Source: a virus
Virus record (IMG/VR): IMGVR_UViG_3300045988_162015
DNA: 64,000 nucleotides
Reading direction: 5' to 3' (one strand)
Part shown: positions 34,150 through 62,423 of the stretch, piece after piece
How positions within the stretch are numbered: the first letter of the stretch is position 1
How the letters are laid out: each line of letters starts with the position of its first letter
Notes under the pieces: model-generated
Databases searched by the model: none
Told to the model about the DNA's origin: nothing
The model's input: only the letters and a program-made list of their open reading frames with translations
Program-made: the position numbers and the translations under genes

Positions 34150-34195
34150 TCGAAAATTTATAAAAAATTTGATATAATATATATAGAAAGGATGG
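34150..34195. promoter_or_regulatory. phage promoter motif
   Basis: ATTTATAAAAAATTTGATATAATATATATAGAAAGGATGGGAG. Confidence 0.4.
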
Positions 34196-44580: not shown

Positions 44581-44660
44581 ATGAACTTAAAGAACAAGTA
44601 AAGAAGGTTATTGCCTATTCATAGGGGCTGGACATTAACCTTTTAAATATTGATAAATTA

Positions 44661-46398: not shown

Positions 46399-46680
46399 AT
46401 GAAGAAGATTATAATTCCTCAAGAAGAAGTAAATTATCTTTAGAAATTAAATTATGAAATTGAAGCTAGAAAAAATTTATGTCAATTTTTAATTAGACAA
46501 AATATTAGAAATAAAGCTTTTGATGATTATCATAATGAGTATATAGAATTATTTGCTGAATATGAATTAGCTAAATTAGAATTAGAAAATAATTATATTA
46601 AACCAGTAATTGGAAATCAAACTTGTAATTGGAATTTAGATTTTTAGACAAACGAGGTAAATATTGATGTTATTTCCTAA
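46399..46680 (+). CDS. small protein upstream of the radical SAM gene (93 aa; 2 in-frame TAG); possible peptide-recognition partner
   Basis: AAGAAAGGAATAAAAATATG RBS. Overlaps the radical SAM start by 14 nt. The function is a guess. Confidence 0.35.
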
Positions 46681-48007
46681 GATAATTAATATTCCTGAAG
46701 AATTTTCTGATTTTATAAGTCGTTTATATTCTAATGATTGCTTAAATTCTTAGGCTGTATTTACATTAACTTTTTAGGTTACAGATGATTGTTGTCTAAA
46801 TTGTGTTTATTGTTATCAAGGACATAAAGGAAAACATAAATTATCCTTTAATACAGCTAAATAGATGATTGATTAGATACTAACAAGAGACAATAAAGTT
46901 ATTAATTATATTGATTCTTATAAAATACCAGGAGTAGTAATAGAATTTATAGGTGGAGAGCCATTTTTAGAAATTGAATTAATTGATTAGATTACTGATT
47001 ATTTTATTAATAAAATGATTGAATTGCGGCATCCTTGGGCCACTAAATATAAAATTTCAATTAGTTCTAATGGTATTTTATATTTTGAACCAAAAGTACA
47101 AGAGTATATTAAAAAAAATAATGAAAATTTAAGTTTATCAATTTCTATTGATGGAAATAAAAAATTACATGATGCTTGTAGAGTTTTCCCTGATGGTAGT
47201 GGTAGTTATGATAAAGCATTGTCTGCTGCATTACATTATAGCCATAATTATAATAAATGGATTGGGAGTAAAATGACTATCTCTCCATTTAATATAGATT
47301 ATTTATATGACGCTGTTTTAGAAATGATAAACAATGGTTATAATCAAATCAATCTAAATTGTGTGTATGAAAAAGGTTGGGAACTTAACCATGCCACTAC
47401 ATTATATTATTAGTTAAAAAAAATTGCTGATTATTTATTAAATAATGATTTGTGGGATAAAGTTTATTTATCTATTTTTTATATTAATGATGGAAGTAAA
47501 AATTTATCTAATGATAATTGGTGCGGCGGGAATGGTCGTATGTTAGCCTTAAATTGGAAAGGTAAATATTATCCCTGTTTACGTTATATGGAAGATAGCA
47601 TAAGTAATCAGCCAGAATATTATATTGGAGATATTTATTAGGGAATAGGCCAAGATAATTTAACCATCAATAGATTAAAAGATTTATCTGAAATAACAGT
47701 TATTAGTCAATCTCCTCAAGAATGTTTAGATTGTGAAATTTCTGGAGGATGCTCTTGGTGTACAGCTTATAATTATCAAGAAACAGGTAATGTTAATAAA
47801 AGAGTTACTTATATTTGTGATATGCATTATGCTACAGTTCTAGCTTCTTTATATTATTTAAATTCTATTTTAAAAAAAATAAACTCGAATAAACGATTTA
47901 AATTTAATGGAGATATGGAAAAAGCATTAAAAATTATCTCTTAGGATGAATATAATATAATAAAGGAGGCAATGACAAATGAAAATAGGAACGACAATAA
48001 CTTCTGA
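46667..48007 (+). CDS. radical SAM/SPASM-domain peptide-maturase-like enzyme (446 aa; 9 in-frame TAG)
   Basis: Cx3Cx2C motif DDCCLNCVYCYQG. GGEPFL glycine-rich motif. SISSNG and SISIDG motifs. C-terminal SPASM cysteines CGGNG...YYPC and CLDCEISGGCSWC. Confidence 0.75.
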
Positions 48008-48629
48008 TAGATTTAATGAATTAAAGAAAAAAATAAAGGCTGAATGTTTACGTCGTAAATATACAGGTAGTGTAAGTTCATATGGAGGGACTTCTTATGA
48101 TTATACTACTTAGCCTAATAATGGAAAAGTTATTTCAAAAGAACATATAACAAAACTGGTAGAACCTATGGCGGCAATAAATATTGAAAATCAGAATGAA
48201 AATATAAATGTTATTAAAGATGATGATTTAAGTACATTAGAGGCAAAAATTACAGCTTATCAAGCTATGGGATTAACTGATTCGAATACTGGATGTTCAG
48301 CTTATTGCACTGGATTATGTTCTACCAGTTGTAGTGAAAGTTGTGGAGTACAATGTCAGGGAACTTGTTTAGGCAGTTGTAAGAATACTTGCCAAGGAGG
48401 CTGCCAAAACACTTGCAGAGGCGGATGTCGAAGCAGTTGTAGTGGCAGTTGTGATGGATGTAGTGGGTCTTGTTCAGGTGGATGCCGAACTGGATGTAGC
48501 GGATGCAGCGGTAGTTGTACAAGACATTGTGCTAACGATTGTACTGGATTATGCGGAGGAAGCTGTTCAGGCTTATGTACAAGTTGTACTGGTACATGTA
48601 GTGGCACAGGTAGAAATGAACCATTATAA
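47979..48629 (+). CDS. Cys-rich repeat precursor-like protein (216 aa): a ~110-aa leader followed by about 25 tandem Cx3C repeats, with one in-frame TAG at 48111
   Basis: AAGGAGGCAATGACAAATG RBS. The core reads GCSAYCTGLCSTSCSESCGVQCQGTCLGSC...CTGTCSGTG. It sits immediately downstream of the radical SAM/SPASM gene. Confidence 0.6.
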
Positions 48630-48747
48630 TTTAAAAATATTTATCGAAAATACATATAACTGTAAGATATATTATATGTATCTTATACAAGATAATATTT
48701 TATTTTGTATAAGTAATTATAAGAATATAAATTTTCAAAAATATAAT

Positions 48748-49317
48748 ATGGATATTTAGATTTTATCTGTTTATGAATATTTATGTCAAAAATATATTTT
48801 ACATAAGGATATATTAAAACAATATAAAGGTATAGAATTATATAAAATTATGGAAATTCAAGATAAAATTTTTATTAATAGATATAAATTATTATTGTAG
48901 ATTATTAATAATAATTATAATTTTGATAATTAGTTAATATACACTGATTTTAATAATTTTAATTTTGAACAAAATATTAGTTATATAAATTATTGTTTAA
49001 AATTACTATTTAATAATTTTAAAAAAATAGATAAACAATTTTGGAAAATTTTAGATTAGATTTATTTTTTAATTAATGGTAAAACTAATTTATTTTTATT
49101 GTTGGGAAATTTTTATTTGAATAAAAGTAATTTATAGCAATTTACTGAAGAAATAAAAAAAATTCCTGGAATTAAAGAATAGCTCTCTTTTAGTTATACA
49201 GCTTTAAATTTAGCTATTGAAATTGATAAAGTTGCAGAAAATAAAAATTATCTTAATGAATTAATTGAAATTATTGATAATCATTCACAAGAAAAAATTT
49301 ATAAATTTGATATTTAA
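48748..49317 (+). CDS. AT-rich hypothetical protein (189 aa; 7 in-frame TAG)
   Basis: Open only if TAG is sense. Lies downstream of the precursor. Low-complexity Asn/Ile/Lys-rich sequence. Confidence 0.35.
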
Positions 49318-49480: not shown

Positions 49481-49504
49481 CCAAATAAGTCTTGTTTGAA
49501 TAAA

Positions 49505-49555
49505 ATAATTATTTGATTTTTAATAAAAAATATTATATAATATTTATATAGAAAA
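49505..49555. promoter_or_regulatory. phage promoter motif, variant B
   Basis: TTAATAAAAAATATTATATAATATTTATATAGAAAAGG. Confidence 0.4.
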
Positions 49556-49687
49556 GGCTTTTACAGCAATTTAAACTTCTTTCCGTGGTCGAATAACTGG
49601 ATAATTCATTAGAATTAATTCTGAAAATAAGGATTCGAATTCCTTCCTTGGAGCAAAGTATAAAAAGTCTTGGGTAAATTTCTTAAT

Positions 49688-49740
49688 TTGAAAAAATTAA
49701 AAAAATATAATATAATATATAAGTAATCAATAAGAAATCA
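49688..49740. promoter_or_regulatory. phage promoter motif, variant B
   Basis: AAAAAATTAAAAAAATATAATATAATATATAAG. Confidence 0.4.
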
Positions 49741-49747
49741 AATAAAT

Positions 49748-49822
49748 GGGGTCGTGGCCAAGCGGTAAGGCCGACAACTTATAATTGTCAAATCGTTGGT
49801 TCGAACCCAACCGGCCCCACCA
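49748..49822 (+). tRNA. tRNA-Ile (anticodon UAU)
   Basis: Cloverleaf GGGGTCG/CGGCCCC. Anticodon loop CTTATAA. T-loop TTCGAAC. Encoded CCA. Confidence 0.7.
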
Positions 49823-49848
49823 TATTCCAATAGAAAGGAATTAAAATA

Positions 49849-50088
49849 ATGAAGTTGACAAATATTAAGCAGGTTGAAGATTTTATCGCAGCAGTTAATC
49901 GGGCACATAGTAATGTATGGCTGGTAAGTCCGCAGGGTGATAGATATAATATGAAATCTGCACTTTCACAGTATATTGCACTTGGTGCATTGCTCGGCCA
50001 GCATGGCGATGAATTGGAACTTTTCTGTGATAGTAAGCAGGATGAAGGCTTGTTTATTGAATTTTTTGTTCGTCACCCTGAAGTTTAA
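49849..50088 (+). CDS. hypothetical protein (79 aa)
   Basis: AGAAAGGAATTAAAATAATG RBS. Confidence 0.5.
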   Translation: MKLTNIKQVEDFIAAVNRAHSNVWLVSPQGDRYNMKSALSQYIALGALLGQHGDELELFCDSKQDEGLFIEFFVRHPEV

Positions 50089-50115
50089 TAAAAACATTAG
50101 AGAGGGAGGGGAAGA

Positions 50116-51075
50116 ATGACTGTTATTGAATTGTTCGCAGGAATTGGAACATAGATTTCAGCCTTGAGCGAGATTGATCCAAATATTAGATCAATTGGTA
50201 TTAGTGAAATTGATGAACGACCATTGAAAGCGTATAAAGTTTTGAATGGTGAATATAATAATTTTGGTGATATCACAAAAATTGATACTTTGCCCTACGC
50301 AGATATTTGGACTTATTCTTTCCCTTGTACTGATTTATCTATTGCAGGGAAGCAAGAAGGTTTTCAAGGAAAAAATTCTTCATTAATTTATGAGGTATAC
50401 CGTCTCTTGCTTTCTTCTCCAAAGCCAAAAATTCTTTTAATGGAAAATGTGGCCAATATTTGTAATAATACTTTTATGCCAAAATTTCAAGAGTGGATTA
50501 ATAGTTTAGCTGAATTAGGTTATGTATCTAGTTGGAAGAAAATAAAAGCTTATGAATATGGCGGAGCAACTATTAGAGATCGTGTATTCATGATTTCAGT
50601 AATTTCTCCTTTAAAAAAGTTTATTTTCCCTTTAGCTGAAAATGTTAAAACTACTTTAAAAGATTTTTTGGAGCCAATTAACGAAGAATATTTCATTGAT
50701 AGTTATGATGGCCCAAGTGATATTACTACACCATATTATAATGGAGCTAAAAAACTCTGTGATTATAAAAATGGTGGTCAAGGAAATCGAATTTATTCTA
50801 TATTTGGACAAGGAGTTACATTAACTGCTTCTGGTGGAGGAAAAGCCGGATCAAGTGGTGGTTTGTATCTTCGTAATAATAGTATTTATAAACTTACTCC
50901 AATTGAGATTTGTAAAGTAATGGGTTGGACTAAAGTAGAAGCAGAAAAGATTTGTTCTGTTTTAACCCCTAGAGAAGTGGGTTTTTGCTTGGGCAATGCC
51001 ATTGATAGAAATGTGTTAATTCATATTTTTAAAGGGATAAAGGAACAATACTATGATGAATTGGGAGAAAAGTGA
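50116..51075 (+). CDS. DNA (cytosine-5)-methyltransferase, with an in-frame TAG at 50152
   Basis: Motif I ELFAGIGT. Motif IV FPCTDLSIAG (PC motif). Motif VI ENV. GGGGAAGAATG RBS. Confidence 0.7.
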
Positions 51076-51679
51076 AAAGAAAGCATTTGAATGGTTTAAA
51101 AATAACTATGATAATGATGCGGTTTACCAAGGACATAATAATTCTACTATTTCAGATATTTATTCTCCTTTATATAATTGCTATATTGAAGTAAAAGATA
51201 TTACTAATGGTGCTCGATGCGGGCAATTTACTAAAAGTACCATCAGTAATAACCCATATGCTGAAGCTATTTATTTGGGTAAAAATGATGAAGAAACTTG
51301 TATAAATTTTGTAAAAGAGCATTATAGAGCTAAACGAGTAGGGGCTTTTATTATTATTAATAATAATAATATTTCTCTTGTGGCTTTTGATGATTTTTTT
51401 AATAATTATACTTTTGAAATTCAAAAGCCTTATTGCAAAAGAAGCGGCACTTCATCGGCTCCAATTAAAGATAAAGAAACTCTTTTAAAATTTAATACAG
51501 GATTTTATCAAGAAAATAATAAAGTTTTTTGTTCTGATCAAAATTTATTTGGTACTTATTGTTCAGTATTTAATCCTTTTGATTATTTTATCAGTAAAAC
51601 AACTGGTGAATTAAGAAAAAGAAGTAATACTAATAATATGACTTGGCATATTGTAATTAAAGAAAAATTGAAAAATTAA
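51053..51679 (+). CDS. putative PD-(D/E)xK nuclease partner of the methyltransferase (possible Type II restriction endonuclease)
   Basis: Overlaps the methyltransferase 3' end. SDIY...CYIEVKD is a possible D...ExK motif. Weak. Confidence 0.3.
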   Translation: MMNWEKSEKKAFEWFKNNYDNDAVYQGHNNSTISDIYSPLYNCYIEVKDITNGARCGQFTKSTISNNPYAEAIYLGKNDEETCINFVKEHYRAKRVGAFIIINNNNISLVAFDDFFNNYTFEIQKPYCKRSGTSSAPIKDKETLLKFNTGFYQENNKVFCSDQNLFGTYCSVFNPFDYFISKTTGELRKRSNTNNMTWHIVIKEKLKN

Positions 51680-51715
51680 AAAAAATATTATAAAATATAT
51701 ATACAAAATAAATGA
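51662..51715. promoter_or_regulatory. phage middle/late promoter motif
   Basis: AAAAATTAAAAAAAATATTATAAAATATATATACAAAATAAATGAG. Confidence 0.4.
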
Positions 51716-51735
51716 GAAATAAATTCTCATTTGTA

Positions 51736-51812
51736 TGGGACAGTAGCTTACGAGGTCGGAGCATTGGTCTGAAAAACCAAAGGATGGAGGCTCGATACCT
51801 CCCTGTCCCACC
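51736..51812 (+). tRNA. tRNA-Phe (anticodon GAA)
   Basis: Acceptor GGGACAG/CTGTCCC. Anticodon loop CTGAAAA. Atypical T-loop CTCGATA. Encoded CCA. Confidence 0.6.
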
Positions 51813-51895
51813 AATTGGTCTTACACATGGGGTTTCCGATTTGAACTAGGCAGATTAGTCACCTGCCGTTGGCAATAGACCAATTAAAAATAAAC
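51813..51895 (+). ncRNA. structured hairpin element (9 bp outer stem AATTGGTCT/AGACCAATT enclosing an inner GGCAG/CTGCC stem-loop)
   Basis: Nested inverted repeats lying between two tRNAs. Function unknown. Confidence 0.3.
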
Positions 51896-52031
51896 TGAGG
51901 CAAAGGGAAATCGGGTAGTTATGATGAACTTCATAATGAAATCCTCTTGTAATCAAGCTAATTGGGAGAGAGGTAGCACGGGAACGGGGAGAAGCGTGCT
52001 ATAAAAGGTGAAATACTTCTTTCCACCATAT

Positions 52032-52107
52032 GCCGGTGTAGCCGAATGGCATAGGCGAATGATTTAGGATCATTAATCTGAAGGTTCGAATCCTTTCACC
52101 GGTACCA
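52032..52107 (+). tRNA. tRNA with anticodon UAG (Leu-decoding) but a type I body (5-nt variable loop)
   Basis: Acceptor GCCGGTG/CACCGGT. Anticodon stem AATGA/TCATT with loop TTTAGGA. Variable loop AATCT. Encoded CCA. Confidence 0.6.
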
Positions 52108-52176
52108 TAAGCCGATATCTTTGTACTATCCGGTGGTTGGTGGCTCCATCGTTATGTAAATAAGCCATATATATAT

Positions 52177-52247
52177 TACTTCTTGGTGTAATGGAAGCAC
52201 GCTGCCTGAAGGGGGCGGAGGTATTGGTTCAATTCCAATAGAAGGAT
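52177..52247 (+). tRNA. tRNA-like gene, anticodon unresolved (loop TGAAGGG with G33); possibly a pseudogene
   Basis: D-arm GTG-TAATGGAAG-CAC. T-arm ATTGG-TTCAATT-CCAAT. The acceptor pairs 6 of 7. Confidence 0.35.
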
Positions 52248-52597
52248 TAATTAAAGCTGGGAAATAATAGTCGCCCATAACTAATTATTTAATATAGGAC
52301 TATTATTAAAGATTATTTAAGTTAAAGAAATGCGGTTGAAGTTATTACTTACTTGATCATAAAATAATATAACCGCAAGACGAGTGTTTGAAGCTTGTCT
52401 ATAAACAAATTCTTCATATGTTGTCTTTTTATACTTACTCTTTGGCTGTTTCTTGACATATAAGTAAAGGCGAAAAGGGAGTTAAAGGTTTAACTAAAAA
52501 ACCAGTTTGTTTTTTGATAAGATTTTAAAGGTTAGGTGGCAAAATCTTATTTGAGTGACGCTGCTCAGGAGGGTCCGGAACCTCTAAAATGCGATAT

Positions 52598-52730
52598 GCG
52601 CCAGTGGCCAAGTGGTATGGCACCTGCCTTTGTGGGATTGATGTAAGTAGCATTTTAATGTATTGGTTCAAATCCAATATTCCGCACCATAAGCAGGGCA
52701 ACGCGGGTTCGATCCCCGCCTGGCGCACCA
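52598..52730 (+). tRNA. tRNA interrupted in the anticodon loop by a 58-nt insertion (52632-52689) that itself resembles an anticodon-arm-less mini-tRNA
   Basis: Outer tRNA: acceptor GCGCCAG/CTGGCGC, D-arm GCC-AAGTGGTAT-GGC, and anticodon stem halves CCTGC(52623)...GCAGG(52693) separated by the insert. The T-arm is GCGGG-TTCGATC-CCCGC with an encoded CCA. Insert: acceptor GTGGGAT/ATTCCGC, D-arm ATG-TAAGTAG-CAT, T-arm ATTGG-TTCAAAT-CCAAT, then ACCA. Confidence 0.45.
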
Positions 52731-53064
52731 GGTCAAGTTTGAGAAATTTCATAGAGCATTGCTGACGTTAAATGGTTCTTATATGAAAGCGCGTAATTAG
52801 TATAAGAAACAAAATTCTCGTAGTTCATCCCATTAGAGAATCTTAAAGAGTAATGGCAAGGTCATATCGCGGGAGACCGTGCGTATGAGATACCTAAATA
52901 AAGGTAGCACATTCTGTGTTGAGCAGAATACTAGTGGAAATCAAGCGGGTCCACCTTACTGGGCCTACTGTAATAGCCAGTTTAATATGCCCTCCATACC
53001 CAATGAGGAATTTTTATAAAAGTCTATTTAATTTTTCTTGGCAGTTTAGTTAAATAGACTATAT

Positions 53065-53141
53065 GCGGGATTAGCTCAGCTGGTTAGAGCGTTTGGTTTA
53101 CACCCAAGAGGTCATTGGTTCGAATCCAATATCCTGCACCA
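53065..53141 (+). tRNA. tRNA-Val (anticodon UAC)
   Basis: GCGGGAT/ATCCTGC. D-arm TAGCTCAGCTGGTTAGAGC. Anticodon loop TTTACAC. Encoded CCA. Confidence 0.7.
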
Positions 53142-53142
53142 A

Positions 53143-53200
53143 TAAATTTGAAAATTTAAAAAAAATATTATATAATATTTATATAATAATAAAGGAGATA
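53143..53200. promoter_or_regulatory. phage promoter motif, variant B
   Basis: AAAAAAATATTATATAATATTTATATAATAATAAAGGAG. Confidence 0.4.
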
Positions 53201-53206
53201 TTTGAA

Positions 53207-53374
53207 ATGGCAACTACTAAGAAACCTGCTATCAAGATGGATAATGAAGAGTTGAATGAGTATCTTCTGTTTCGCCGTCGTAGATCAATTGTCCCTGCCA
53301 AGAAAGGTAAGGGTATGGAATATGATAGAGCGAAGGAAAAAGAAAAATCTGAAAAAATGATTTCTGATGAATAA
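53207..53374 (+). CDS. small basic protein (55 aa)
   Basis: AAAGGAGATATTTGAAATG RBS. Confidence 0.4.
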   Translation: MATTKKPAIKMDNEELNEYLLFRRRRSIVPAKKGKGMEYDRAKEKEKSEKMISDE

Positions 53375-53441
53375 ATATGCTCCCATCGACAAGTGGTCTA
53401 AGTCACCAGCCTTTCACGCTGGAGTCGCCGGTTCAAATCCG
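53369..53441 (+). tRNA. tRNA-Glu (anticodon UUC)
   Basis: GCTCCCA/TGGGAGT. Anticodon loop CTTTCAC. T-arm GCCGG-TTCAAAT-CCGGC. No encoded CCA. Confidence 0.6.
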
Positions 53442-53535
53442 GCTGGGAGTAGAGATACAAATTCTACAACCTTCACGCGGTGTATCTTGTTTTAACTAAT
53501 GTAGAATAAAGTAAATAAAAAGGAGCTGTTTAATT

Positions 53536-54159
53536 ATGGCATACATTTATTAGATTATTAATGATATAAATTAGAAAATTTATGTTGGTAAAACTGAATT
53601 TTCTATTGAAAAACGTTTTAAAGAACATTGTAAAGATGCTTTTAGAGAGCGCAATGAAAAACGTCCATTATATTCAGCAATGCGAAAATATGGAGTAGAA
53701 CATTTTCATATTGAACTAATTGAAGAAACTGATGATGCTAATAATCGAGAAACTTATTGGATTGAAAAATTAGGTTCTTTTAAATGGGGATATAATGCTA
53801 CAATAGGCGGAGATGGTAAAAAGTATCTTGATTATGATTTAATTATTGCTTCTTATCAAGAAATTAAAAATATTGAAGAAACTGCTCGTAAATTAGGAAT
53901 TTCTTCTGATAGTGTAGAAAGAATTCTTAAAGAAAAAAAAGAAAAAATTTATTCTCAACAAGAAGTTAATTTAGTTAAATCAGGTAAAAAAGTTGCTCAA
54001 TGTGATAAAAAAACTGGAAAAATTTTAAATATATTTCCATCTATTGGAAGTGCAGGTAGAGCTATTAATAAACCTGATATTACTCATATAAGCGCTGTAT
54101 GCTTAGGTAAAAGACAAAGTGCTTATGGTTATAAATGGAAATTTATTGAAAATAATTAA
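53536..54159 (+). CDS. GIY-YIG homing endonuclease (I-TevI-like), with 2 in-frame TAG codons
   Basis: MAYIY[TAG]IINDIN[TAG]KIYVGKT aligns with I-TevI GIYQIKNTLNNKVYVGS, placing the first TAG at the I-TevI Gln. A C-terminal helix-turn-helix-like region follows. Confidence 0.7.
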
Positions 54160-54183
54160 AATTATTCTTATATGGTGCTATAG

Positions 54184-54260
54184 TTCAGTTGGCTAGAATG
54201 TCGGACTGTCTCTCCGAAGGTCAGGGGTTCGAGTCCCCTTAGCATCGCCACCGCACTCGC
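54184..54260 (+). tRNA. tRNA-Asp (anticodon GUC)
   Basis: GGTGCTA/TAGCATC. Anticodon loop CTGTCTC. T-arm AGGGG-TTCGAGT-CCCCT. Encoded CCA. Confidence 0.7.
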
Positions 54261-54352
54261 GGGATGATACTACAAATGCACAACAGATAATTAAAATTGG
54301 CAGCATAGAACTTGATAGAGCGTTCTATTAATCTGATTAAATTAAGTTTTAT
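54261..54352 (+). repeat. post-tRNA repeat element, copy 1 (CCGCACTCGCGG hairpin ... GCATAGAACTTGATAGAGCGTTCTATTAATCTGAT ... ATTAAGTTTTATAAC)
   Basis: A near-identical unit follows tRNA-Asn at 54570. It contains a small GC hairpin directly 3' of the CCA and an ATAGAAC/GTTCTAT hairpin. Confidence 0.55.
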
Positions 54353-54355
54353 AAC

Positions 54356-54431
54356 TATCGAATATGGGGCTTTAGCTCAACTGGGAGAGCGCCTGTCTTG
54401 CACACAGGAGGTAGCGAGTTCGACCCTCGCA
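54356..54431 (+). tRNA. tRNA-Ala (anticodon UGC)
   Basis: GGGGCTT/AAGTTCC. Anticodon loop CTTGCAC. T-arm GCGAG-TTCGACC-CTCGC. Encoded CCA. Confidence 0.65.
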
Positions 54432-54493
54432 AGTTCCACCATTAAGTGTGATATATTCCAAACACGTAGGGTGGTAAGCACACGGGTTTTCTA

Positions 54494-54569
54494 GAAGCCT
54501 TCCCTATGAATATGGATGCATAGCTCAGTTGGTAGAGCAATTGACTGTTAATCAATGGGTCGGAGGATC
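54494..54569 (+). tRNA. tRNA-Asn (anticodon GUU)
   Basis: GGATGCA/TGCATCC. D-arm TAGCTCAGTTGGTAGAGC. Anticodon loop CTGTTAA. Encoded CCA. Confidence 0.7.
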
Positions 54570-54690
54570 ATACCCTTCTGCATCCGCCACCGCACTCGCG
54601 GAAAACATACAACTCAACTGGTGCATAGAACTTGATGGAGCGTTCTATTAGTCTGATGCCTGCATTAGATTAAGTTTTATAACCATTATA
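54570..54690 (+). repeat. post-tRNA repeat element, copy 2
   Basis: CCGCACTCGCGGAAAACATACAACTCAACTGGTGCATAGAACTTGATGGAGCGTTCTATTAGTCTGAT...ATTAGATTAAGTTTTATAACC. Confidence 0.55.
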
Positions 54691-54719
54691 TTTATAAAAG
54701 ACAATTTCAGCAATTATAA

Positions 54720-54825
54720 ATTTGCTTGGGGAGCCGTAGGTTATAGGTTCAAGTCCTATTGTTCGGCAGAATGCCGGATATGGCGTAATTGGTAGCGCGA
54801 CGTATAAAAATTGTCTTGTTAATAT
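54720..54825 (+). pseudogene. tRNA fragments (a 3'-half-like T-arm ATAGG-TTCAAGT-CCTAT followed by a 5'-half-like GCCGGATATGGCGTAATTGGTAGCGC)
   Basis: The halves are in 3' then 5' order and their acceptor strands do not pair. Degenerate. Confidence 0.3.
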
Positions 54826-54898
54826 TGCGGGGTCGTCAAGTGGTTAAGACACAAGCCTCATAAACTTGTTATCGTGGGTTCGAATCCTACCCCCGCAA
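54826..54898 (+). tRNA. tRNA-Met (anticodon CAU)
   Basis: TGCGGGG/CCCCGCA pairs 7 of 7, with U8. Anticodon loop CTCATAA with a 31-39 C-A mismatch. T-arm GTGGG-TTCGAAT-CCTAC. Confidence 0.6.
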
Positions 54899-55099
54899 GA
54901 GATACATTAATCAAACCTCCACGTGGTGTATCTTGGGTAACGCTAATTGATTAAATGAGTATAATTAATAATGTTTTATGAAAAGCCCACACAGCAATTT
55001 TTAATAGGTTAAATAAGAAATTCTGCAAAAATTTTTTAGAGTTGGTTCAAATCCAGCAAATGATTTTAGGGCTTTGTTAAAATTGTTAAGGAGAAAATA

Positions 55100-55285
55100 A
55101 TGAAGTTTAATCCAGGAGATAAGGTCTGGTGTAAGAGGTACGGTAAGGGTAAGTGCCGTAAGGCTGATAATAAGGATAATTTTATGACTTATCTTTTCAG
55201 ATTTTATGATGGCACTTTGATTTGGATGCCGAAACGTCAGGCTGAACATTTTGTAAAAGTTCGTTCCACCGAGGCCACGGTGTGA
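55100..55285 (+). CDS. small basic protein (61 aa)
   Basis: AAGGAGAAAATAATG RBS. Lies within the tRNA island. Confidence 0.4.
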   Translation: MKFNPGDKVWCKRYGKGKCRKADNKDNFMTYLFRFYDGTLIWMPKRQAEHFVKVRSTEATV

Positions 55286-55444
55286 ATATAAAGTCCGGTT
55301 ATAGGAAATCCTGTCATTAGGCGGCAGGCTACCGGTAATCCTTTCTTATATATTTAAATATGTAAGGAACAAAAACTATACAATAGATAGAGTTTTTACG
55401 CCTTGGCGCGATGCTTGTTTTTTACTATCTATTTTTCTATATTC

Positions 55445-55531
55445 GGAGTCGTGGGATAATGGTATTCCAATGGATTGCTAATCCATCCTACCTCTTGGGT
55501 AGTCCGCGTTCGAGTCGCGGCGATTCCGCCA
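55445..55531 (+). tRNA. tRNA-Ser (anticodon GCU), type II
   Basis: GGAGTCG/CGATTCC. Anticodon loop TTGCTAA. 17-nt variable arm. T-arm CCGCG-TTCGAGT-CGCGG. Encoded CCA. Confidence 0.7.
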
Positions 55532-55537
55532 TTATAT

Positions 55538-55625
55538 GTAGGAGTGCCAGAGTGGTCGATTGGGTTAGTCTCCAAAACTAATTGTAGCTGCACATCCAGG
55601 GTTCGAATCCCTTGCTCCTATGCCA
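55538..55625 (+). tRNA. type II (long variable arm) tRNA with anticodon CCA
   Basis: Acceptor GTAGGAG/CTCCTAT, U8, D-arm CCAG-AGTGGTCGA-TTGG. Anticodon stem TTAGT/ACTAA with loop CTCCAAA. About 15-nt variable arm. T-loop TTCGAAT. Encoded CCA. Confidence 0.5.
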
Positions 55626-55896
55626 TACGTATTAAGACTCATTTTCAGCAAACTTTTGCCTGTAAAGGCTCTACAATACTTATTTATTACTAATAGATGA
55701 AAAAGTATAATAAAGAAAATAAAGTATATTTTGAAAAGTTTTTTCTTTTTAGCTGATTTAGTAAGCTAAATTCCGCGTTTTTATTTTGGCTTTTCAATGA
55801 GTCTTGTTTATTAAAATAATTGGTATCGCTAAGCTTCATAGTAATTGTGGCGTATTTAAATCATAGATAGCTAAGGGTCTATAGCCAATTATGATA

Positions 55897-55985
55897 TGCG
55901 GAATTAACTTGCCCGGCGGTAAGCCTTGTCTTGAAAACAAGTGGTCCTGTGATAGGGATGGGGATCGACACCTCAGTTCCGCGCC
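55897..55985 (+). tRNA. tRNA-Ser-like (anticodon UGA), type II, with an irregular D-arm
   Basis: GCGGAAT/GTTCCGC. Anticodon stem CTTGT/ACAAG with loop CTTGAAA. 17-nt variable arm. T-arm TGGGG-ATCGACA-CCTCA. Encoded CCA. Confidence 0.45.
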
Positions 55986-56028
55986 ACTCGTTTCAGATTC
56001 GTTCATTGCATTTCATCCTTTCTATAAA

Positions 56029-56070
56029 GATGGACTGATTAGATTAATCAGTCCATCTTTTTTTTTATAT
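56029..56070 (+). terminator. rho-independent terminator (end of the tRNA island)
   Basis: 14 bp stem AGATGGACTGATTA/TAATCAGTCCATCT followed by T9. Confidence 0.7.
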
Positions 56071-56218
56071 ATTTTAAAGACAGTAGGTTATGGGTTGCTC
56101 TGGCCGGTTTGGACCATTAAAACCGAATGCTTGAATTAAAATTCCATTTAAGAAATTTTCGGTCTAACAGGTATAGAGCAATATAAAATAATTTTAAATA
56201 TGAAAGGAGAAGGACAAT

Positions 56219-56332
56219 ATGAAAATGTTTATTCTTTCATATAAGGGCGGCAAAGATGGCGGCGATATTGACAAAGAAGATACTTCCAAGTCAACAGGCG
56301 GCTGGGATGGCGGCTCTATAGATGATGATTAA
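56219..56332 (+). CDS. small Gly/Asp-rich protein (37 aa)
   Basis: AAAGGAGAAGGACAATATG RBS. Speculative. Confidence 0.3.
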   Translation: MKMFILSYKGGKDGGDIDKEDTSKSTGGWDGGSIDDD

Positions 56333-56349
56333 AGAAAGGAGAACACAAG

Positions 56350-57411
56350 ATGGCTGAAATTATTAAGTTAAGACGCGGTAAATCAACCAGTTGGTCTAAA
56401 AAGAATATAGTCCTGGCAGCTGGTGAAATCGGCGTAGAACTTGATACACATTAGATTAAAGTCGGTGATGGTTCAACCCCTTGGAATGAACTATCTTATG
56501 TAGGCGGAACTAAAGTTGTTAATGTTCAAGAATACACTGATAATCCAGCAGTTGTAGATGGTGTGCCTTATCAATCTATTGATGTAGCATTTATGAAGGC
56601 TCCAGCAGGAAGTACAATTCGTCTTAATGCTAACTTTGATAACAGTGTTTCTATTGATAAAGCATTGACTATTGAATTAAATGGTAATGATATTATTAAT
56701 AATGAAAAAACTCCAATAAATATCAAAGCAAACGGCGATTTAACTATTAAGGGCCAAGGTACTATTGAATGTAATAAGAATGAAAATGCCGCGGTTTTTA
56801 ATAATGGTAATATTACTATTAATAATGGTAAATTACAACGTACTACTGATATATCAGGCAACGGTTATTATACTGCTGTTAATCATGGCACTATGACAAT
56901 TAATGGCGGCATGTTTATGAGTGGTGGCGAATTTTCTAGCATGATTGAAAATGGCTATTGGGATTATCACGCTGGTAATGCTACTAATGGTTATGTTCAA
57001 GGTCAAAATGCTGAAATGCCTACATTAACTATTAATGATGGTACATTCGCTGGCGGCTTATATGCTATAAAAAATGATGATAATGCTGTTTTAAATATTA
57101 ATGGCGGCACATTCTATAATACTATTCTTGCTAATGGTAAGTCAATAACTATCACTGATGGGTATTTTGAAAATAGTAAGCCAAGTCAAGGCGAATATAA
57201 TTTTTATCTTCGTAAATTAAGTGAAGATTTAAATCCTCAAAATACATATATTAGTGGCGGTACATTTATTACTGCACAAGATAAGAATTTCAAGGTTGAG
57301 GGCGATCCTCATATTGAAATTAGCGGTGGCCGTTTTAATAGAGAATTAGATCCTTCTTATCTAGCTCCTGGCTATAGACAAGTACTTGTCAATGGCTTCT
57401 ATACTGTCTAG
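56350..57411 (+). CDS. tail fibre/tail spike protein with a beta-helix-like Asn/Gly-rich repeat region, and an in-frame TAG at 56452
   Basis: N-terminal motif IKLRRGKSTSW...GEIGVELDTH[TAG]IKVGDGSTPWNELSYVGG is shared with four other genes. The repeats are NGN.IT.N.G-type. Confidence 0.55.
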
Positions 57412-57426
57412 AAGGAGGAATAATCT

Positions 57427-57942
57427 ATGGCTGATATCATCAAGTTCAAAAGAGGTCGATCAACTACATGGCGTGAAAAGAACTTATTGCTTAAGGATGG
57501 CGAGCCTGGATTTGAATTAGATACTCATAAACTGAAAATTGGTGATGGTAAAACCTTATGGAATGATTTACCATATATCGGTGGCGAAAGTGGTACAATT
57601 GATCTTCCTGATAATGTAATGGAATTTTTAGGCACAGTTGATGCACTTCCAGCTACTGCTGAAGATGGAGAAATGTGTATTTATGATGGTAAATTATATA
57701 TTTACGATGGTAAATGGACAACTACAGAAACTTCTTCTTCAGCACAAAATTCTTTCAATTCTTTAGTAGATGCAATTAACTATATTACTTAGCATAATTG
57801 TGTTGGTCAAATTGTATCTATCTTTTAGAATAATAAATGGTTGCCTTATATTGTAGATGTAAATAATAATCTTGTACCTATTCAATATGGAGAAGATCAT
57901 TATGATATTCTTAATGGCGGCAACGCAAATACTCTTAATTAA
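57427..57942 (+). CDS. tail-fibre-motif protein (171 aa; 2 in-frame TAG)
   Basis: IKFKRGRSTTW...GFELDTHKLKIGDGKTLWNDLPYIGG. The frame continues past the TAGs at 57790 and 57826. Confidence 0.5.
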
Positions 57943-57964
57943 TTTTATAGGAGGAAAATAATTT

Positions 57965-59182
57965 ATGGCTGAAAATATTCTTAATACTCGCATTCAAGTA
58001 TTAAATGACACGGCTGAAGCTCTTAAAGCAAAAGGTAGTGCAGTCCCAAAAGCTGGCGAAATTGTTTATGAGAACGATACTCGTAAAATGAAAATCGGTG
58101 ATGGTACTACTACTCTTGAAAACTTAAAATATTTTGGTGGCGAAGCCGCTCAAAATTTTGAAACTATTCCAACAGGTGAAGAAACTGACGTTCAGGCTAT
58201 TACTCGTATTGTAGCTTCTGCAGAACTTCACAATGGCGATACTGCTATTGTAAAGCGTGCTATTACTGGCGATAAGACTTCTTATACTGCTTACGTATAT
58301 GACGGCGAATGGAAAGCTATGGATGGCAATTATCGTGCTGATAATGTTTATTTTGATGATGACATTACTTATACTGTTGCTATTGGCACTTTAGCTAAGC
58401 CATCTGGTTCTGCTAAATTTGCAGCTAAAGGTAAGAGCGTTGAACAGGTCCTTTCTACCTTAATGGCCAAGGAAGCTAATCCTTCTAAGTCTGATCCTGC
58501 TGTTAGTTTCAGCTCTACTAGCGGACTTGGTACATTTGAAATTGGCACGAAGAAGAATTTAACATATACAGCAGCTCTATCTGCTGGTAGTTATACTTAT
58601 GGTCCAGCTACTGGTATTACAGCTCAGAGTTGGAGTGTAAAATGCACTGGTGTTGAAGATGTCCTTGCTACTGCTACTGGTTCTTTCGATAATGTTGTTG
58701 CTGAAGCAACAGCTAAAAAAATTACTGCAACCGCAACTTATGGCGACGGCACTATTCCTAAGACCAATCTAGGTAATTCTTATCCTGCTAGCCAGATTAA
58801 GGCAGGCTCAGCATCTAACGATAGCAATGTCCTTTAGGGTGTCCGTCATATGTTCTATGGTCCTATGACTACTGATGCAGCTCTTGATAGTACTACTATT
58901 CGTGGATTAAAACATGAAGCTGCTAATAAAAAGCCTATTACTACATTTGGTGCAGGTGCTGGAGCAAAGAAAGTTGTTATTGCTTGTCCTGCTGGATATA
59001 ATGTAACTAAGGTTCTTATGCCTAGTGCTATGAATGCTGATGCTACTGCTAACTTTGTAAAGCAAGCTGGTACTGTTAATGTTGAGGGTGCTGAAGGATA
59101 TACTGCAGTTCCTTATACTGTTTGGGTATATTAGCCCGCCTCAATTGATAGTACTGAAACTTATGCTGTTACAATTGGTTAA
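57965..59182 (+). CDS. tail fibre protein (405 aa; 2 in-frame TAG)
   Basis: N-terminal motif GEIVYENDTRKMKIGDGTTTLENLKYFGG. In frame with track ORFs 57965 and 58850 through the TAG at 58838. Confidence 0.5.
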
Positions 59183-59206
59183 TTTATAAAGGAGGAATAA
59201 TATAAT

Positions 59207-61897
59207 ATGGCTACTATTTTAAAAGATGCTGCCTATATGGCTCTTCCTATGAATATCAAGCGTGGTAATCCTATCCCTCTTGATACTACTGCTGTATGGT
59301 ATGATAAAACTGAACTAAATAAGTATGCAGCTTCTGGTGCTACTGCATATGTTGGTCAGATTCTAACATTATGTGCCGATAATAAGTGTGAAGCTTATAT
59401 GATTTCTAATGAAGCTGGTACATTAATTAAACTAGCTTCTACAACCGCTTCTGGTGACCTTGCTGGCGATGTTACTACTCTACAAGGTCAAGTTACAAAT
59501 CTTATTTCTAAGGTTGGTAAAGCAGCTGATGGTGAAGTCGCAGCTACTGGTCTATATAAAGAAATTGCTGATGTTCTAGCTATTGCTAATGGCAAGGTTG
59601 CTTCTGTTAAGGCAGCTGATAAGTCCATTATGGTTGGTGGCAATGCTACTGAGCCTACTGTTAAGGTAGCTATTGCATCTGGTGAGGATAATGCTCTTTC
59701 ACTTGCAGCTGATGGTCTGAAGGTTGTTATTCCTGAAGTGACCGTGCCTGAATATAGCATGAAGAAGCTGGATGTCGCTACTGAGGGCATGTCCGCATCT
59801 TATCAGCTAACTAAGGATGGCACAGCTATTGGTGCAGTTATCGACATTCCAAAAGACATGGTTGTTAAGTCTGGTTCTGTTCAGACATTTGCAGCTGGTG
59901 AAGTACCCGCTGGTGTTACTGAGGCTGGTACATATATTGTATTAGTTCTAGCTAATACTACTAATGATAAATTATATATTAGAGTCAATGATTTAATTGA
60001 ATATGTCACCTCTGGCTCTGCTGCAGATGATATGGTATTCATCAATATTGATCCTAAGACTCATAAGGTAACAGCAAAAATTACTGACGGTAGCATCACT
60101 GAAGCTAAACTAGCAAAAGCTGTTACTGATAAGCTCGCTTTAGCTTCTTCTGCTATTCAGAAGGTCGAATCTGGTACTGCTAATGGCACTATTGCCGTTG
60201 ATGGTACTGATATTGCTGTCACTGGACTAAGGAGTGCTGCATATACCGATTCCACTGCTTATGATACTGCTGGTACTGCTGCTGGTATAAAGACAGCTCT
60301 TGAAGGTGCTGATGCTGATAAGGCTGATGCTCTTACCATTAAGGGTGCTAAGAAATATGCTGAGGAAAAAGCAACTGCAGCTCAGAGTGCTGCTGAAACA
60401 ACTGCAAAGGGCTATGTTAATGGCCTAAATCTTGCTGATAAAGCTGTTACCAAACAGCTCGTTTCTGCCGTTACGCAGACTAATGGTCAAATTGCAGTTA
60501 TTCGCCGTGAACTAGTTGCTGATGATATTCCCACTCTTGGTATTTCTAAGATTGATGGTCTTCAGGGTGCTCTTGGCGCTAAGTAGGATACCGTCGTATT
60601 TGATGGTGAATATTCAGCAAGTAATAAAGCTGCTACAGTAAGCACTGTTAATACTGCTGTTGATAATTTACGTCATACTGTTGATGGTAAAGGTAAAGAT
60701 ATTGATACCCAAGATAGTCAAACTATCCATGGTGCAAAAATTTATGCTGATGAAGTCAGTAAGGCTACTCTTGGTTAGGCTAAAACTTATGCTGATAGCT
60801 TAGTCGGTGATAGTTCTGCTATTGCTGGTCGTGTAACTACTCTTGAAGGCAAAGTTGATGTAGCAAAGGTTAGTACTGCTATCTCTACTGCTAAGAATGA
60901 GGCTATTGAGGCCGCAGCAACAGATGCCGCATCTAAGGATACTGCTTTAAAGACTGAGATCCTTGGGGACGGATATACTGGTACTGTAAAGGAAGCTTAT
61001 GACCTTGCTAATAAGAAAACTACTATGACTGAGGTTGAGGCTAAGGGCTATGCTGTTAAGACTGAAGTTGATACTGCTGTTGCTGATGCAAAGAAAGCTG
61101 GCACCGATGCTCAGACTTCTGTTGATACATTAAGTGGTAAAGTTGGTACTATTCCAGTAGGCGCTAAAGCTACTACTGTTATTGGTTATGTAGATGAAAA
61201 AATTGCGGCTATTCCTTCATAGGTTAATTATACCGTTACTGCTGATGTTAGTAGTCCTACTGGCATTGCCAAACGATATGTCCTTAGCCAGAATGGTAGT
61301 GATATTGTAACCATTGATATCCCCAAAGATATGGTGGTCAGCTCTGGTACTGTTGAAACTAAGGCTGATGCTGGTGTATGGGGGGTTGCAGGTACTTATC
61401 TAGTTCTTACTCTAGCTAATGCAACCTCTGACAAGGTATACATTAATGTTGGCGACCTTATTGAATATGTAACTAGCGGCTCTTAGGCTGACGATATGGT
61501 CGAAATCAAGATTGATGCCGAGCATAAGGTCACTGCCGTTATCAATGATGGTACGATTACAAAGGCAAAGCTAGCTTAGGCTGTACAAGATAGCCTAGAT
61601 AAAGCTGATACAGCACTATAGATGGCCGATCTTGCACCATATGCAAAGACTGCTGATATTAAAGCTGGCTATGTTGCAAAAGAAGATGGCAAACAGCTAA
61701 TGACCGCTGCTGAAAGCACTAAATTGGCCGGTATTGCTGCTAATGCACAGGTCAACGTGATTGAAGTCGTTAAGGTTGGCGGCACTGCTCTTGAAATTGC
61801 TGATAAAGCTGTTAATATTGAAACAATCAGTACTGATCTATTAACTCAAGGTGCTAAAACTCTTATTCTCAATGGTGGCACCGCTGCTTCTCTTTGA
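59207..61897 (+). CDS. large Ala/Thr-rich tail fibre/virion structural protein (896 aa; 6 in-frame TAG) with an internal ~100-aa duplication
   Basis: Joins track ORFs 59207, 61025 and 61622 in one frame. The duplication is IDIPKDMVV(K/S)SG(S/T)V...YVTSGS.ADDMV...KAKLA. Confidence 0.55.
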
Positions 61898-61964
61898 TAT
61901 ATATATATACTAGGGAGAGAGAAATCTCTCCCTTCCAATAGTAAAAGAGAAAGGGGAATAAAGA

Positions 61965-62306: not shown

Positions 62307-62310
62307 GAAT

Positions 62311-62345
62311 AAAGACTCCATTTTGGAGTCTTTATTTTTTTTACC
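62311..62345 (+). terminator. rho-independent terminator
   Basis: AAGACTCCA-TTTT-GGAGTCTTT followed by T8. Confidence 0.7.
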
Positions 62346-62423
62346 TGGACTAATTTTATTAATTTAATATTTTTATTTTTTATATAAATTTAGAATAAGA
62401 AACATTGAAAGGAGGAACTTTCA

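Follow-up and report, generated by a model that had tools for sequence, protein, structure and literature searches.

A tRNA gene interrupted within its anticodon by a second, tRNA-shaped element is described here from a 64,000-nucleotide stretch of viral DNA (IMG/VR record IMGVR_UViG_3300045988_162015), hereafter called the window. The gene, at 52598-52730 (+), is a perfect tRNA cloverleaf split by a 58-nt insert at 52632-52689, and its exons are predicted to form a tRNA-Lys(UUU). The insert splits the anticodon itself, between nucleotides 35 and 36, and the locus appears to belong to a wider tRNA-in-tRNA class found in gut phages that carry theta ribozymes and RNA-repair genes. The three parts of the locus are as follows.

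52598-52631 (+): 5' exon of tRNA-Lys(UUU), with the acceptor 5' strand, D arm, anticodon-stem 5' strand and loop nucleotides C32, U33, U34 and U35; GCGCCAG-TG-GCCA-AGTGGTA-TGGC-A-CCTGC-CTTT.
52632-52689 (+): 58-nt tRNA-like intervening element, with an acceptor stem (52632-52638 / 52679-52685), D-like hairpin (52641-52653), T arm (52662-52678, T loop TTCAAAT), discriminator A (52686) and CCA (52687-52689), the anticodon arm being absent; GTGGGAT-TG-ATG-TAAGTAG-CAT-TTTAATGT-ATTGG-TTCAAAT-CCAAT-ATTCCGC-A-CCA.
52690-52730 (+): 3' exon of tRNA-Lys(UUU), with U36, A37 and A38, the anticodon-stem 3' strand, variable loop, T arm, acceptor 3' strand, A73 and CCA; TAA-GCAGG-GCAAC-GCGGG-TTCGATC-CCCGC-CTGGCGC-A-CCA.

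The first-pass annotation of this DNA had described a split tRNA with a three-armed, anticodon-less insert bearing its own CCA, and that description proved accurate to the base. With intron detection switched on, ARAGORN places a tRNA at 52598-52730 and assigns it an intron of 58 nt, and the joined exons are called as a 75-nt tRNA-Lys(ttt) with stems paired 7/7, 4/4, 5/5 and 5/5 and the loop CUUUUAA; the perfect cloverleaf claimed upon removal of 52632-52689 is thus borne out. In the joined form, the 7-bp acceptor is accompanied by all three arms (D, anticodon and T), the anticodon loop is 7 nt long with U at position 33 and a purine at position 37, and CCA follows the discriminator. The predicted exon junction reads ...CCUGCCUUU/UAAGCAGG..., and the junction string GGCACCUGCCUUU/UAAGCAGGGC is not present in the intron-bearing genomes (here and below, a slash marks the junction). 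The interrupted gene is not called by ARAGORN at default settings, which list 12 other tRNAs at 49.7-55.6 kb, and an Rfam scan at gathering thresholds returns no proper tRNA at the locus, just a 31-bit chimeric match at 52598-52686. Split or permuted tRNA genes of the Nanoarchaeum or Cyanidioschyzon type, the latter arrangement having been suggested previously, do not fit, the halves being collinear at a single locus and parted just by the 58-nt element.

The z-scores of the minimum free energy (MFE) are weak (-1.0 for the insert, -1.6 for the whole locus, and -1.8 for the spliced form), as is usual for tRNAs. Because such scores are uninformative for tRNA-like RNAs, comparative evidence was relied upon instead, and it is this evidence, not folding energy, that excludes a chance origin. 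When 20,000 segments were excised at random from the same DNA, one junction-spanning tRNA arose. A background of 0.93 Mb of unrelated loci gave only two intron calls, both artefacts (tandem tRNAs whose stems are mismatched).

The splice junction sets the anticodon, and ARAGORN's own rule leads to CAU. Exact removal of the insert from G+1 to CCA is the only one of four junction options that yields the loop CUUUUAA, that is, Lys(UUU). A naturally intron-less allele is found in contig L226 (IMGVR_UViG_3300045988_152007), which has the outer tRNA of another contig, L062, without the insert and with the same flanks. L062 can be converted to L226 only via deletion of exactly GTG(A/G)GAT...CACCA (58 nt); sliding this 58-nt frame by one base gives CTTATAA or CTTTGAA instead. 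Furthermore, in contig L097 another, uninterrupted tRNA-Lys(UUU) occupies the same array slot, with flanks identical on both sides. Since exact excision, the L226 allele and the L097 slot-mate agree, the outer gene is a tRNA-Lys(UUU), and not a Gln or suppressor tRNA. Of the anticodons initially listed for the locus (UUU, UUG, UAU and CAU), UUU is retained through the exact excision and the L226 allele, and the others are dropped. AAA is the commonest Lys codon in the window, at 47.8 per 1000.

The interrupted gene is present in the window and in seven further human-gut phage contigs from independent assemblies, among them L012, L059 and L062 (IMG/VR), L103 (OJAW01000005.1, a 189.5-kb human-gut contig), and L104 and L106 (ENA assemblies). 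A first, loose pattern search had returned 87 loci, 84 of them chance matches. The 5' exon is identical in six relatives, and L062 carries the same insert within a markedly different Lys body, with seven compensatory pair changes. Among six closely related copies, 38 of 337 sites (11%) are variable in the upstream spacer and 13 of 71 in a degenerate tRNA at 52177-52247 that lacks U33 and CCA, as against 1 of 132 in the whole interrupted gene and 1 of 58 in the insert alone (Fisher test, p = 2e-5 for the whole gene and p = 0.012 for the insert). At the sole variable site, which lies within the inner acceptor stem, the change is from G·U to A-U. Each of the 36 modelled pairs is preserved in the three distinct sequences, and nine pairs are changed on both sides, seven belonging to the outer stems and two to the inner acceptor; neither the 500 shuffles nor the slid controls ever attain this. 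The D-like hairpin is invariant among the copies, and covariation is therefore uninformative there. These data argue that both exons and the insert are under selection, against a pseudogene. Indeed, the pseudogene reading is weakened by the contrast with the decaying tRNA next door: neither the spacer-like rate of a tRNA pseudogene or scar (1/132 versus 38/337 and 13/71) nor any broken pair was seen.

Searches beyond these contigs gave little. No nucleotide match was found among GenBank phages (INPHARED), whether near matches were sought with a 6-kb query or distant ones with a 133-nt query, and an exact-protein lookup of the neighbouring open reading frame (ORF) returned just one 2.6-kb Logan contig. 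A search for the host with the anticodon arm in bacterial genomes gave Acidobacteriota tRNA-Lys genes and a tRNA 3' fragment from an Oscillospiraceae metagenome-assembled genome, and was uninformative.

The insert itself begins and ends like a tRNA. Its 7-bp acceptor stem (G1-C, U2·G, G3-C, G4-C, G5·U, A6-U, U7-A) encloses a short D-like hairpin, an 8-nt connector where the anticodon arm would be, and a canonical T arm (ATTGG-TTCAAAT-CCAAT), and is followed by the discriminator A and CCA. The T arm matches that of tRNA-Val exactly, and one wobble change is seen in it among the copies compared. L097 holds a full tRNA-Val(UAC) whose 3' end coincides with the final 28 nt of the insert, and the corresponding gene of the window is closely similar there.

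53065-53141 (+): tRNA-Val(UAC), with 89% identity to the final 28 nt of the insert across its T arm and acceptor 3' strand.

In L097 (minus strand, reverse-complement 3588-3705), an orphan tRNA-Lys 3' half, identical to the 3' exon of the window, directly follows the CCA of a complete tRNA-Val(UAC), and a second tRNA-Val lies 207 nt downstream of the fusion. This fusion is a recombinant of the Val gene and the insert, and shows that the two are homologous. We interpret the insert as a degenerate tRNA with a tRNA-Val-like 3' part, tRNA-Val being its likely source or recombination partner; the acceptor stem, T arm and ACCA end that it has retained are those by which tRNA end-processing enzymes recognise their substrates. 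Free-standing copies of the mini-tRNA were not found; the D-arm pattern matched just the nested copies and three unrelated loci.

In a scan of 49500-56500 taken to E = 5, no ribozyme or intron family of Rfam matches the insert, which is neither a group I nor an archaeal-type intron. Its 58 nt fall far below group I length, and RF00028 was not detected by the same tool that finds a true one in contig L227. A theta ribozyme or other ribozyme resembling that of hepatitis delta virus (HDV) gave no match on the insert, with weak, well-placed matches elsewhere in the array. An archaeal or eukaryal bulge-helix-bulge (BHB) intron is contradicted by the 4 x 7-nt internal loop, in place of 3-nt bulges flanking a 4-bp helix, and by the position 35/36, in place of the canonical 37/38; no EndA-like protein was seen among the scanned ORFs of the window, which makes up about a third to half of the genome. 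Finally, an extended anticodon helix proposed by RNAfold (UUGUGG/CCAUAA) is broken in L062 and has no equivalent in the interrupted tRNA-Ile described below.

Two theta (minimal HDV-like) ribozymes were observed in the tRNA array of the window, at 53452-53506 and 54899-54954 (+), each starting from the base after the discriminator. They follow the two CCA-less tRNAs, tRNA-Glu(UUC) and tRNA-Met(CAU), and both read GAGATAC...ACCTYCACGYGGTGTATCTTG...CTAA, with P1/P3/P2 pairing evident. Their scores against Rfam HDV-F-prausnitzii are 19.4 and 24.9 bits, under gathering. Such ribozymes have been described in phages of the gut (Kienbeck et al., 2024, PMC10879173).

The conserved theta core was used as a handle to collect 118 IMG/VR loci (0.99 Mb, 676 tRNAs), a sample that is not a controlled survey and, with few tRNAs in the background set, does not establish a per-tRNA enrichment. 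Each of the 818 tRNAs called across all loci of the analysis, not just these 118, was then removed from +1 to CCA, and a tRNA spanning the resulting junction was sought. Six of the 818 excisions restore a canonical outer tRNA, and represent four distinct arrangements; the inner tRNAs score 52.9-72.4 bits against Rfam tRNA.

L202 2025-2177: tRNA-Phe(GAA) in tRNA-Arg(UCU), CTT/CTAA.
L110 4972-5124: the same Phe-in-Arg arrangement, the outer tRNA left untyped by ARAGORN.
L115 752-904 (-): tRNA inside tRNA-Asn(GUU), CTG/TTAA.
L119 2541-2690 (-), the same as L169 6847-6996 (-): tRNA-Asn(GUU) in tRNA-Lys(UUU), CTT/TTAA.
L130 1666-1815 (-): tRNA-Asn(GUU) in tRNA-Lys(UUU), CCTTT/AA.

Degenerate inserts were assigned with a heuristic script of our own, and these assignments are less secure than the six complete-tRNA cases.

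L155 and L182/L183: degenerate inserts in tRNA-Lys(UUU).
L182, L169 and L175: degenerate inserts in tRNA-Leu(UAA).
L198: 49-nt mini-tRNA insert.
L119 2071-2237 (-), L169 6349-6513 (-) and L175 68-234 (+): 93-nt element in a tRNA called Arg(tcg) by ARAGORN.
L169 2650-2785 (-), L175 4386-4521 (+) and L232 3967-4102 (+): 47-49-nt hairpin in tRNA-Leu(UAA).

The 93-nt and 47-49-nt elements are without a T-loop; in L119 and L169, the 93-nt and Leu elements are closed by a 7-bp stem with a 4-nt tail, TCCA and ACAA, respectively. Those of L169, the only locus scanned at the E-value threshold, match no Rfam family at E <= 0.01. Several ARAGORN intron calls in the theta-ribozyme sample were tandem-tRNA artefacts; others (L134, L141, L184, L197, L198 3070-3198 and 5286-5409, and L217) were not assigned a structure and were left out of the count. 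At the 13 loci resolved from 20 examined, the insert consists of a 7-bp stem with a 4-nt tail, ACCA or GCCA, with the variants ACAA and TCCA, and is preceded by U, once by G. Most of the inserts lie at 34/35 of the host loop, the one in the window lies at 35/36, and 36/37 also occurs. Because the insert ends are constant while the host-loop position varies, the boundaries are set by the insert and not by the host anticodon loop.

A second gene of the same phages is interrupted in a similar manner. The tRNA-Ile(UAU) of five relatives is split between nucleotides 36 and 37 (CTTAT/AA) by a 73-nt degenerate tRNA-like element (CCAAGAT...ATCTTGG-G-CCA) that ends in GCCA or ACCA.

L012 5382-5530 (-): interrupted tRNA-Ile(UAU).
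L059 5619-5767 (+): interrupted tRNA-Ile(UAU).
L062 2670-2818 (+): interrupted tRNA-Ile(UAU).
L103 9567-9715 (-): interrupted tRNA-Ile(UAU).
L226, minus strand, reverse-complement 2972-3119: interrupted tRNA-Ile(UAU).

In L059 and L103, a compensatory G-C to A-U change is seen in the acceptor stem of this insert. The corresponding slot of the window (49748-49822) holds an intact, unrelated tRNA-Ile(UAU), with flanks identical to those of the interrupted Ile genes of the relatives, and an uninterrupted Ile(UAU) with the same anticodon arm occurs in eight other phage contigs. Intact and interrupted genes thus behave as alternative cassettes at fixed slots of a mosaic array.

The window also encodes a set of putative RNA-repair enzymes.

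18670-20019 (+): ATP-dependent RNA ligase, with an N-terminal OB domain, a nucleotidyltransferase domain and motif I KLHGTS.
29256-29801 (+): P-loop kinase of the polynucleotide kinase (PNK) type (phrog_505, 1.7e-8; PF13671 AAA_33, 1.2e-12).
36420-37226 (+): nucleotidyltransferase of the RlaP family (RNA-repair-pathway Pol-beta; PF10127, 9.1e-6; phrog_388, 1.7e-19).
37424-38248 (+): calcineurin-like metallophosphoesterase (PF00149, 5.9e-12; phrog_1649, 2e-18).

The product of 18670-20019 matches PF09414 above the cut-off (1.7e-7), the PF21189 OB domain below the cut-off, phrog_968 'RNA ligase' (8e-64), and TIGR02306 at 1.1e-8 and 34 bits (cut-off 151); no sequence relative was found in the PDB. 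It is predicted to be an RNA ligase of a distant DRB0094/Rnl5 type, and is a candidate for the exon-sealing enzyme. The kinase and the metallophosphoesterase are possible healing enzymes for 5' and 3' ends, respectively. The nested Arg/Phe gene of L110 has homologues of the ligase (60% identity) and of RlaP no more than 8 kb away, and the nested-tRNA locus of L182 likewise has an RlaP homologue. DRB0094-family ligases were reported to be 140-fold enriched in theta-ribozyme phages, the role offered for them being speculative (PMC10879173).

Based on these features, a maturation pathway can be proposed that we consider about equally apt to be right or wrong: RNase P and a 3'-end nuclease would excise the insert, and a phage ligase would seal the exons into tRNA-Lys(UUU). 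The outer cloverleaf and the inner mini-tRNA would fold independently; RNase P would cut at the inner +1 (U/G), to leave a 3'-OH on the 5' exon; a tRNA 3'-end endonuclease resembling RNase Z/BN would cut directly after the inner CCA, to leave a 5'-phosphate on the 3' exon; and the exons, held by the outer acceptor and anticodon stems, would be sealed by the ligase of 18670-20019 into the 75-nt tRNA. The last three of these four steps are inferred from established enzymology, and build on the observed anatomy, identity, boundaries, conservation and recurrence of the gene and on the presence of the ligase. Cleavage by RNase P gives a leader that ends in a 3'-OH, and cleavage by RNase Z a trailer that starts with a 5'-phosphate; ATP-dependent RNA ligases join such ends. 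For bacterial RNase P, a stack of acceptor and T stems with a 3' RCCA suffices, and U(-1)/G(+1) is preferred. The insert would suit this enzyme because it has a 12-bp acceptor/T stack (7-bp acceptor and 5-bp T stem), a canonical T loop, a 3' RCCA (ACCA) and U(-1)/G(+1); these features recur in other inserts.

Several points weigh against this pathway. The 3' cut is its weak link: we know of no enzyme in the host that cuts precisely after an internal CCA, in many bacteria CCA inhibits RNase Z, and an intact 3' exon would not be released if the 3' end matured exonucleolytically. The characterised DRB0094/Rnl5 ligases act on nicked RNA duplexes and not on anticodon loops, and the ligase of the window is only a distant member of that group (under the NCBIfam cut-off, with no PDB relative); ligase presence was checked in a few nested-tRNA contigs, themselves known in part. 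Intact alleles circulate (L226, L097), and the interrupted gene could thus be dispensable; the array also holds at least one decaying tRNA (52177-52247). The covariation rests on three distinct sequence variants of the locus and is modest evidence.

One competing explanation is that the insertion is never spliced, the mini-tRNA being a recombination scar or selfish fragment and the tRNA-Lys copy a recent pseudogene, tolerated because phage tRNA sets would be dispensable and intact alleles circulate. Bacteria are without a tRNA-splicing endonuclease, recombination between the insert and tRNA-Val has left an orphan Lys 3' half in L097, the mosaic array contains a GIY-YIG homing endonuclease and the decaying tRNA at 52177-52247, and intact Lys alleles exist. 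However, the exons and insert are far more conserved than the spacer and the degenerate tRNA, the stems are kept by compensatory changes even in the different Lys body of L062, and the interrupted allele is the majority form (seven contigs and the window, versus two with an intact tRNA-Lys(UUU) in the slot). Moreover, other lineages nest tRNAs or relics with the same +1...NCCA ends, in some cases with inner and outer tRNAs both fully intact, as random scars would not. We consider an unspliced insertion unlikely on this evidence. A splicing route of the heal-and-seal kind, in which the phosphoesterase and PNK-like kinase would heal and the ligase would seal the ends, as by T4 Pnkp/Rnl1 or in a yeast-type pathway, is suggested by the full toolkit in the window (phosphoesterase, PNK-like kinase, ligase and RlaP) and by the location of most nested inserts at 34/35, a classic anticodon-nuclease site (RloC, colicin E5, gamma-toxin). 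This route is somewhat less likely still: no candidate for the splicing nuclease is present among the ~45 ORFs scanned in the window, itself part of the genome, and the variable host-loop position with a constant insert end points to recognition of the insert. The healing enzymes, in turn, are already explained by the theta ribozymes of the array, which leave cyclic-phosphate tRNA ends (PMC10879173).

It is also conceivable, if improbable, that the pieces are themselves the products, with the 58-nt mini-tRNA and/or the Lys halves acting as nuclease or toxin decoys or as regulators and no ligation taking place. The insert is conserved as much as the exons, and what it retains (acceptor, T arm and CCA) is the portion of a tRNA that many binding proteins recognise; tRNA-Lys(UUU), for its part, is a favourite target of host anticodon nucleases. 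Yet the inserts elsewhere are an ordinary complete tRNA (Phe, Asn) or a plain 47-nt hairpin, which share no common decoy; the exons keep every tRNA feature, including the exact 7-nt loop, needless in a scaffold; and the intron-less allele is an ordinary tRNA-Lys. As for a recoding-related tRNA, Gln or suppressor, whose anticodon would be created through splicing—the link to TAG-to-Gln recoding drawn in the first-pass annotation—TAG-containing late-region ORFs do suggest that TAG is read as sense, and one junction choice gives UUG. But this choice misses the insert ends, CUA is given by no junction, and no possible anticodon reads UAG. The intron-less allele and the slot-mates are Lys(UUU), and L226 already refutes the proposal, which we regard as virtually untenable.

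If excision by end-processing enzymes and rejoining by a phage ligase are taken as a general route with a tRNA or tRNA relic as the intron, gut phages would possess a third, hitherto unrecognised way of tRNA splicing, and their DRB0094-type ligases would gain the substrate that has long been missing; this broader claim is offered tentatively, and we judge it somewhat more apt to fail than to hold. Its origin is a matter of speculation: after cleavage of a tRNA by an anticodon nuclease, a repair ligase might have joined a mature tRNA (5'-P ... CCA-3'OH) to both halves, the product then being fixed in DNA. Such an origin would explain the mature-tRNA boundaries, the preference for 34/35 and the preference for tRNA-Lys(UUU). 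The arrangement may persist by hiding the anticodon loop of a nuclease-targeted tRNA until the phage ligase is present, or it may tie the supply of Lys, Ile and Arg tRNAs to a phage enzyme, a timing switch of the kind proposed for theta ribozymes.

In textbooks, bacteria and their viruses stand for the absence of protein-dependent tRNA splicing, and self-splicing group I introns are the only tRNA introns accepted in them. The proposed pathway, if true, would represent a new principle of splicing, with RNase P and the 3'-end machinery recruited by the intron itself; it would give a physiological role to RNA ligases and repair genes for which no substrate is known, though they are strongly enriched in these phages; and it would yield two tRNAs from one nested gene. 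The complete tRNAs nested in tRNAs, the constant rule of stem plus NCCA, and the co-occurrence with RNA-repair genes are the surprising part of the generalisation made here. Standard bacterial-mode tRNA finders miss nested genes, as default ARAGORN missed the tRNA-Lys for the commonest Lys codon; therefore, phage tRNA repertoires and codon-supply analyses are biased.

Other features of the tRNA array were also recorded. A GIY-YIG homing-endonuclease-like gene (53536-54159, +) lies inside the array, like segB in the T4 tRNA region, and a second GIY-YIG-like gene (14679-15311, -) has 10 in-frame TAGs. The degenerate 71-nt tRNA at 52177-52247 (+), without U33 and CCA, scores 38.7 bits against Rfam; the anticodon call is aag in the window and aaa in relatives, evolution is more rapid than in the spacers, and its T arm is 95% identical to that of the insert. 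A segment of ~200 nt directly after the tRNA-Lys CCA (52731-52931, +) is present in the window, L012, L104, L062, L226 and L097, and absent from L059, L103 and L106. RNAalifold predicts 60 pairs for this segment, 7 of them compensatory, with a terminal hairpin that covaries in three versions; it has neither an Rfam match nor an ORF. A role for it as a splicing cofactor was rejected, its presence being uncorrelated with the intron. An 88-nt tRNA at 55538-55625 (+), conserved beside tRNA-Ser(GCU) in all relatives, has the anticodon CCA, stems of 8 bp (acceptor) and 6 bp (anticodon), and an extended variable arm; the best Rfam match is tRNA-Sec (38.8 bits, under gathering), and it looks like an allo-tRNA or Sec-like body reading UGG. 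Upstream of tRNA-Ile, 49560-49640 (+) contains a T-arm-like GGATTCGAATTCC with flanking complementarity, and may be another decayed tRNA.

In a related collection, L227 759-1030 (-) is a tRNA(CUA), an amber suppressor, with a 196-nt group I intron (RF00028, 58.2 bits, 820-1004). A drum RNA (RF02958, 59 bits) at L198 1388-1499 (+) ends 3 nt before an interrupted tRNA, and a skipping-rope RNA (RF02924, 60 bits) is located in a tRNA array at L110 1708-1777 (+). Elsewhere in the window, the ORFs 56350-63566 (+), 46667-49317 (+) and 14679-16147 (-) are long only with TAG as sense, examples being the ORFs of a fibre-like protein of 896 aa (6 TAGs) and of a radical-SAM protein (8 TAGs). The early-type genes (~0-45 kb) are mostly without TAG, and no tRNA(CUA) was found in the window. 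Three paralogues of 475-572 aa (32459-34177, 40422-42065 and 44556-45983, +) share the core ...SIHPLDY(L/M)TMSDN...WESCMNW... and Cys-rich C-terminal zinc-ribbon repeats; they have no Pfam match, and match phrog_18912 (unknown function) only.

Among known systems, group I introns occupy the same place in the anticodon loop and likewise have coexisting intron-plus and intron-minus alleles, but are self-splicing ribozymes of ~200 nt or more with a conserved core (P3-P9), which the insert lacks. The introns of archaeal and eukaryal tRNAs, handled by EndA and RtcB or Trl1, are also short, located in the anticodon loop, and removed by proteins with exon ligation; here, in contrast, the intron is tRNA-shaped, without a BHB, and at position 35/36. 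In mascRNA/MALAT1 and in mitochondrial tRNA punctuation, an embedded tRNA-like structure serves as the cleavage signal for RNase P and RNase Z, and mascRNA is, like the insert, a CCA-ended tRNA-like RNA of ~60 nt with a poor anticodon arm. Those systems, however, are eukaryotic or organellar and involve cutting only, with no re-ligation. A weak Rfam mascRNA match in the window (24 bits) is an ordinary tRNA-Asp, not the insert.

The repair system of phage T4 (PrrC/Pnkp/Rnl1) resembles the proposed pathway in that a phage ligase rejoins a tRNA-Lys(UUU) broken in the anticodon loop, and in that the phage carries kinase, phosphatase and ligase functions. The break there is damage by a host nuclease to a mature host tRNA, whereas here it is encoded in a phage gene; the ligase there is Rnl1, whereas here it is a distant DRB0094/Rnl5 type. 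Theta ribozymes share with the insert the same phages and arrays, an unconventional formation of tRNA ends and the enrichment of a DRB0094-type ligase, but are self-cleaving and placed after tRNAs, whereas the insert lies inside a tRNA and is without an HDV-like fold.

The closest parallel, and the sole precedent found in full-text searches, is provided by the tRNAs of Lak megaphages, for which 'enigmatic' introns were described, the Thr(TGT) intron being one that 'may itself encode a tRNA' (Devoto et al., 2019, Nat Microbiol, PMC6784885). No mechanism was proposed in that study (PMC6784885). The tRNA-in-tRNA arrangement is thus already known, though unexplained, and the earlier statement that the insert is not a known phage intron class goes too far (PMC6784885). 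Both sets of phages come from the gut and recode TAG, and in both the anticodon loop is interrupted by a near-invariant intron that has alleles with and without it. In our own reading of Table S6, the Phe, Tyr and Gly introns of Lak include acceptor, D and T modules without an anticodon arm; a Lak phage also encodes an RNA ligase (Rnl2). The Lak introns differ in being 79-114 nt long, with a leader hairpin of ~26 nt (TACA...) before the module, and in ending in CA or C, whereas the present insert abuts both exons directly, without a leader, and ends in ACCA. The phages described here furthermore belong to another clade (genomes of 105-190 kb, with no nucleotide match among GenBank phages). From these comparisons, the present element is best regarded as a variant of the Lak-type intron, not as a member of that group.

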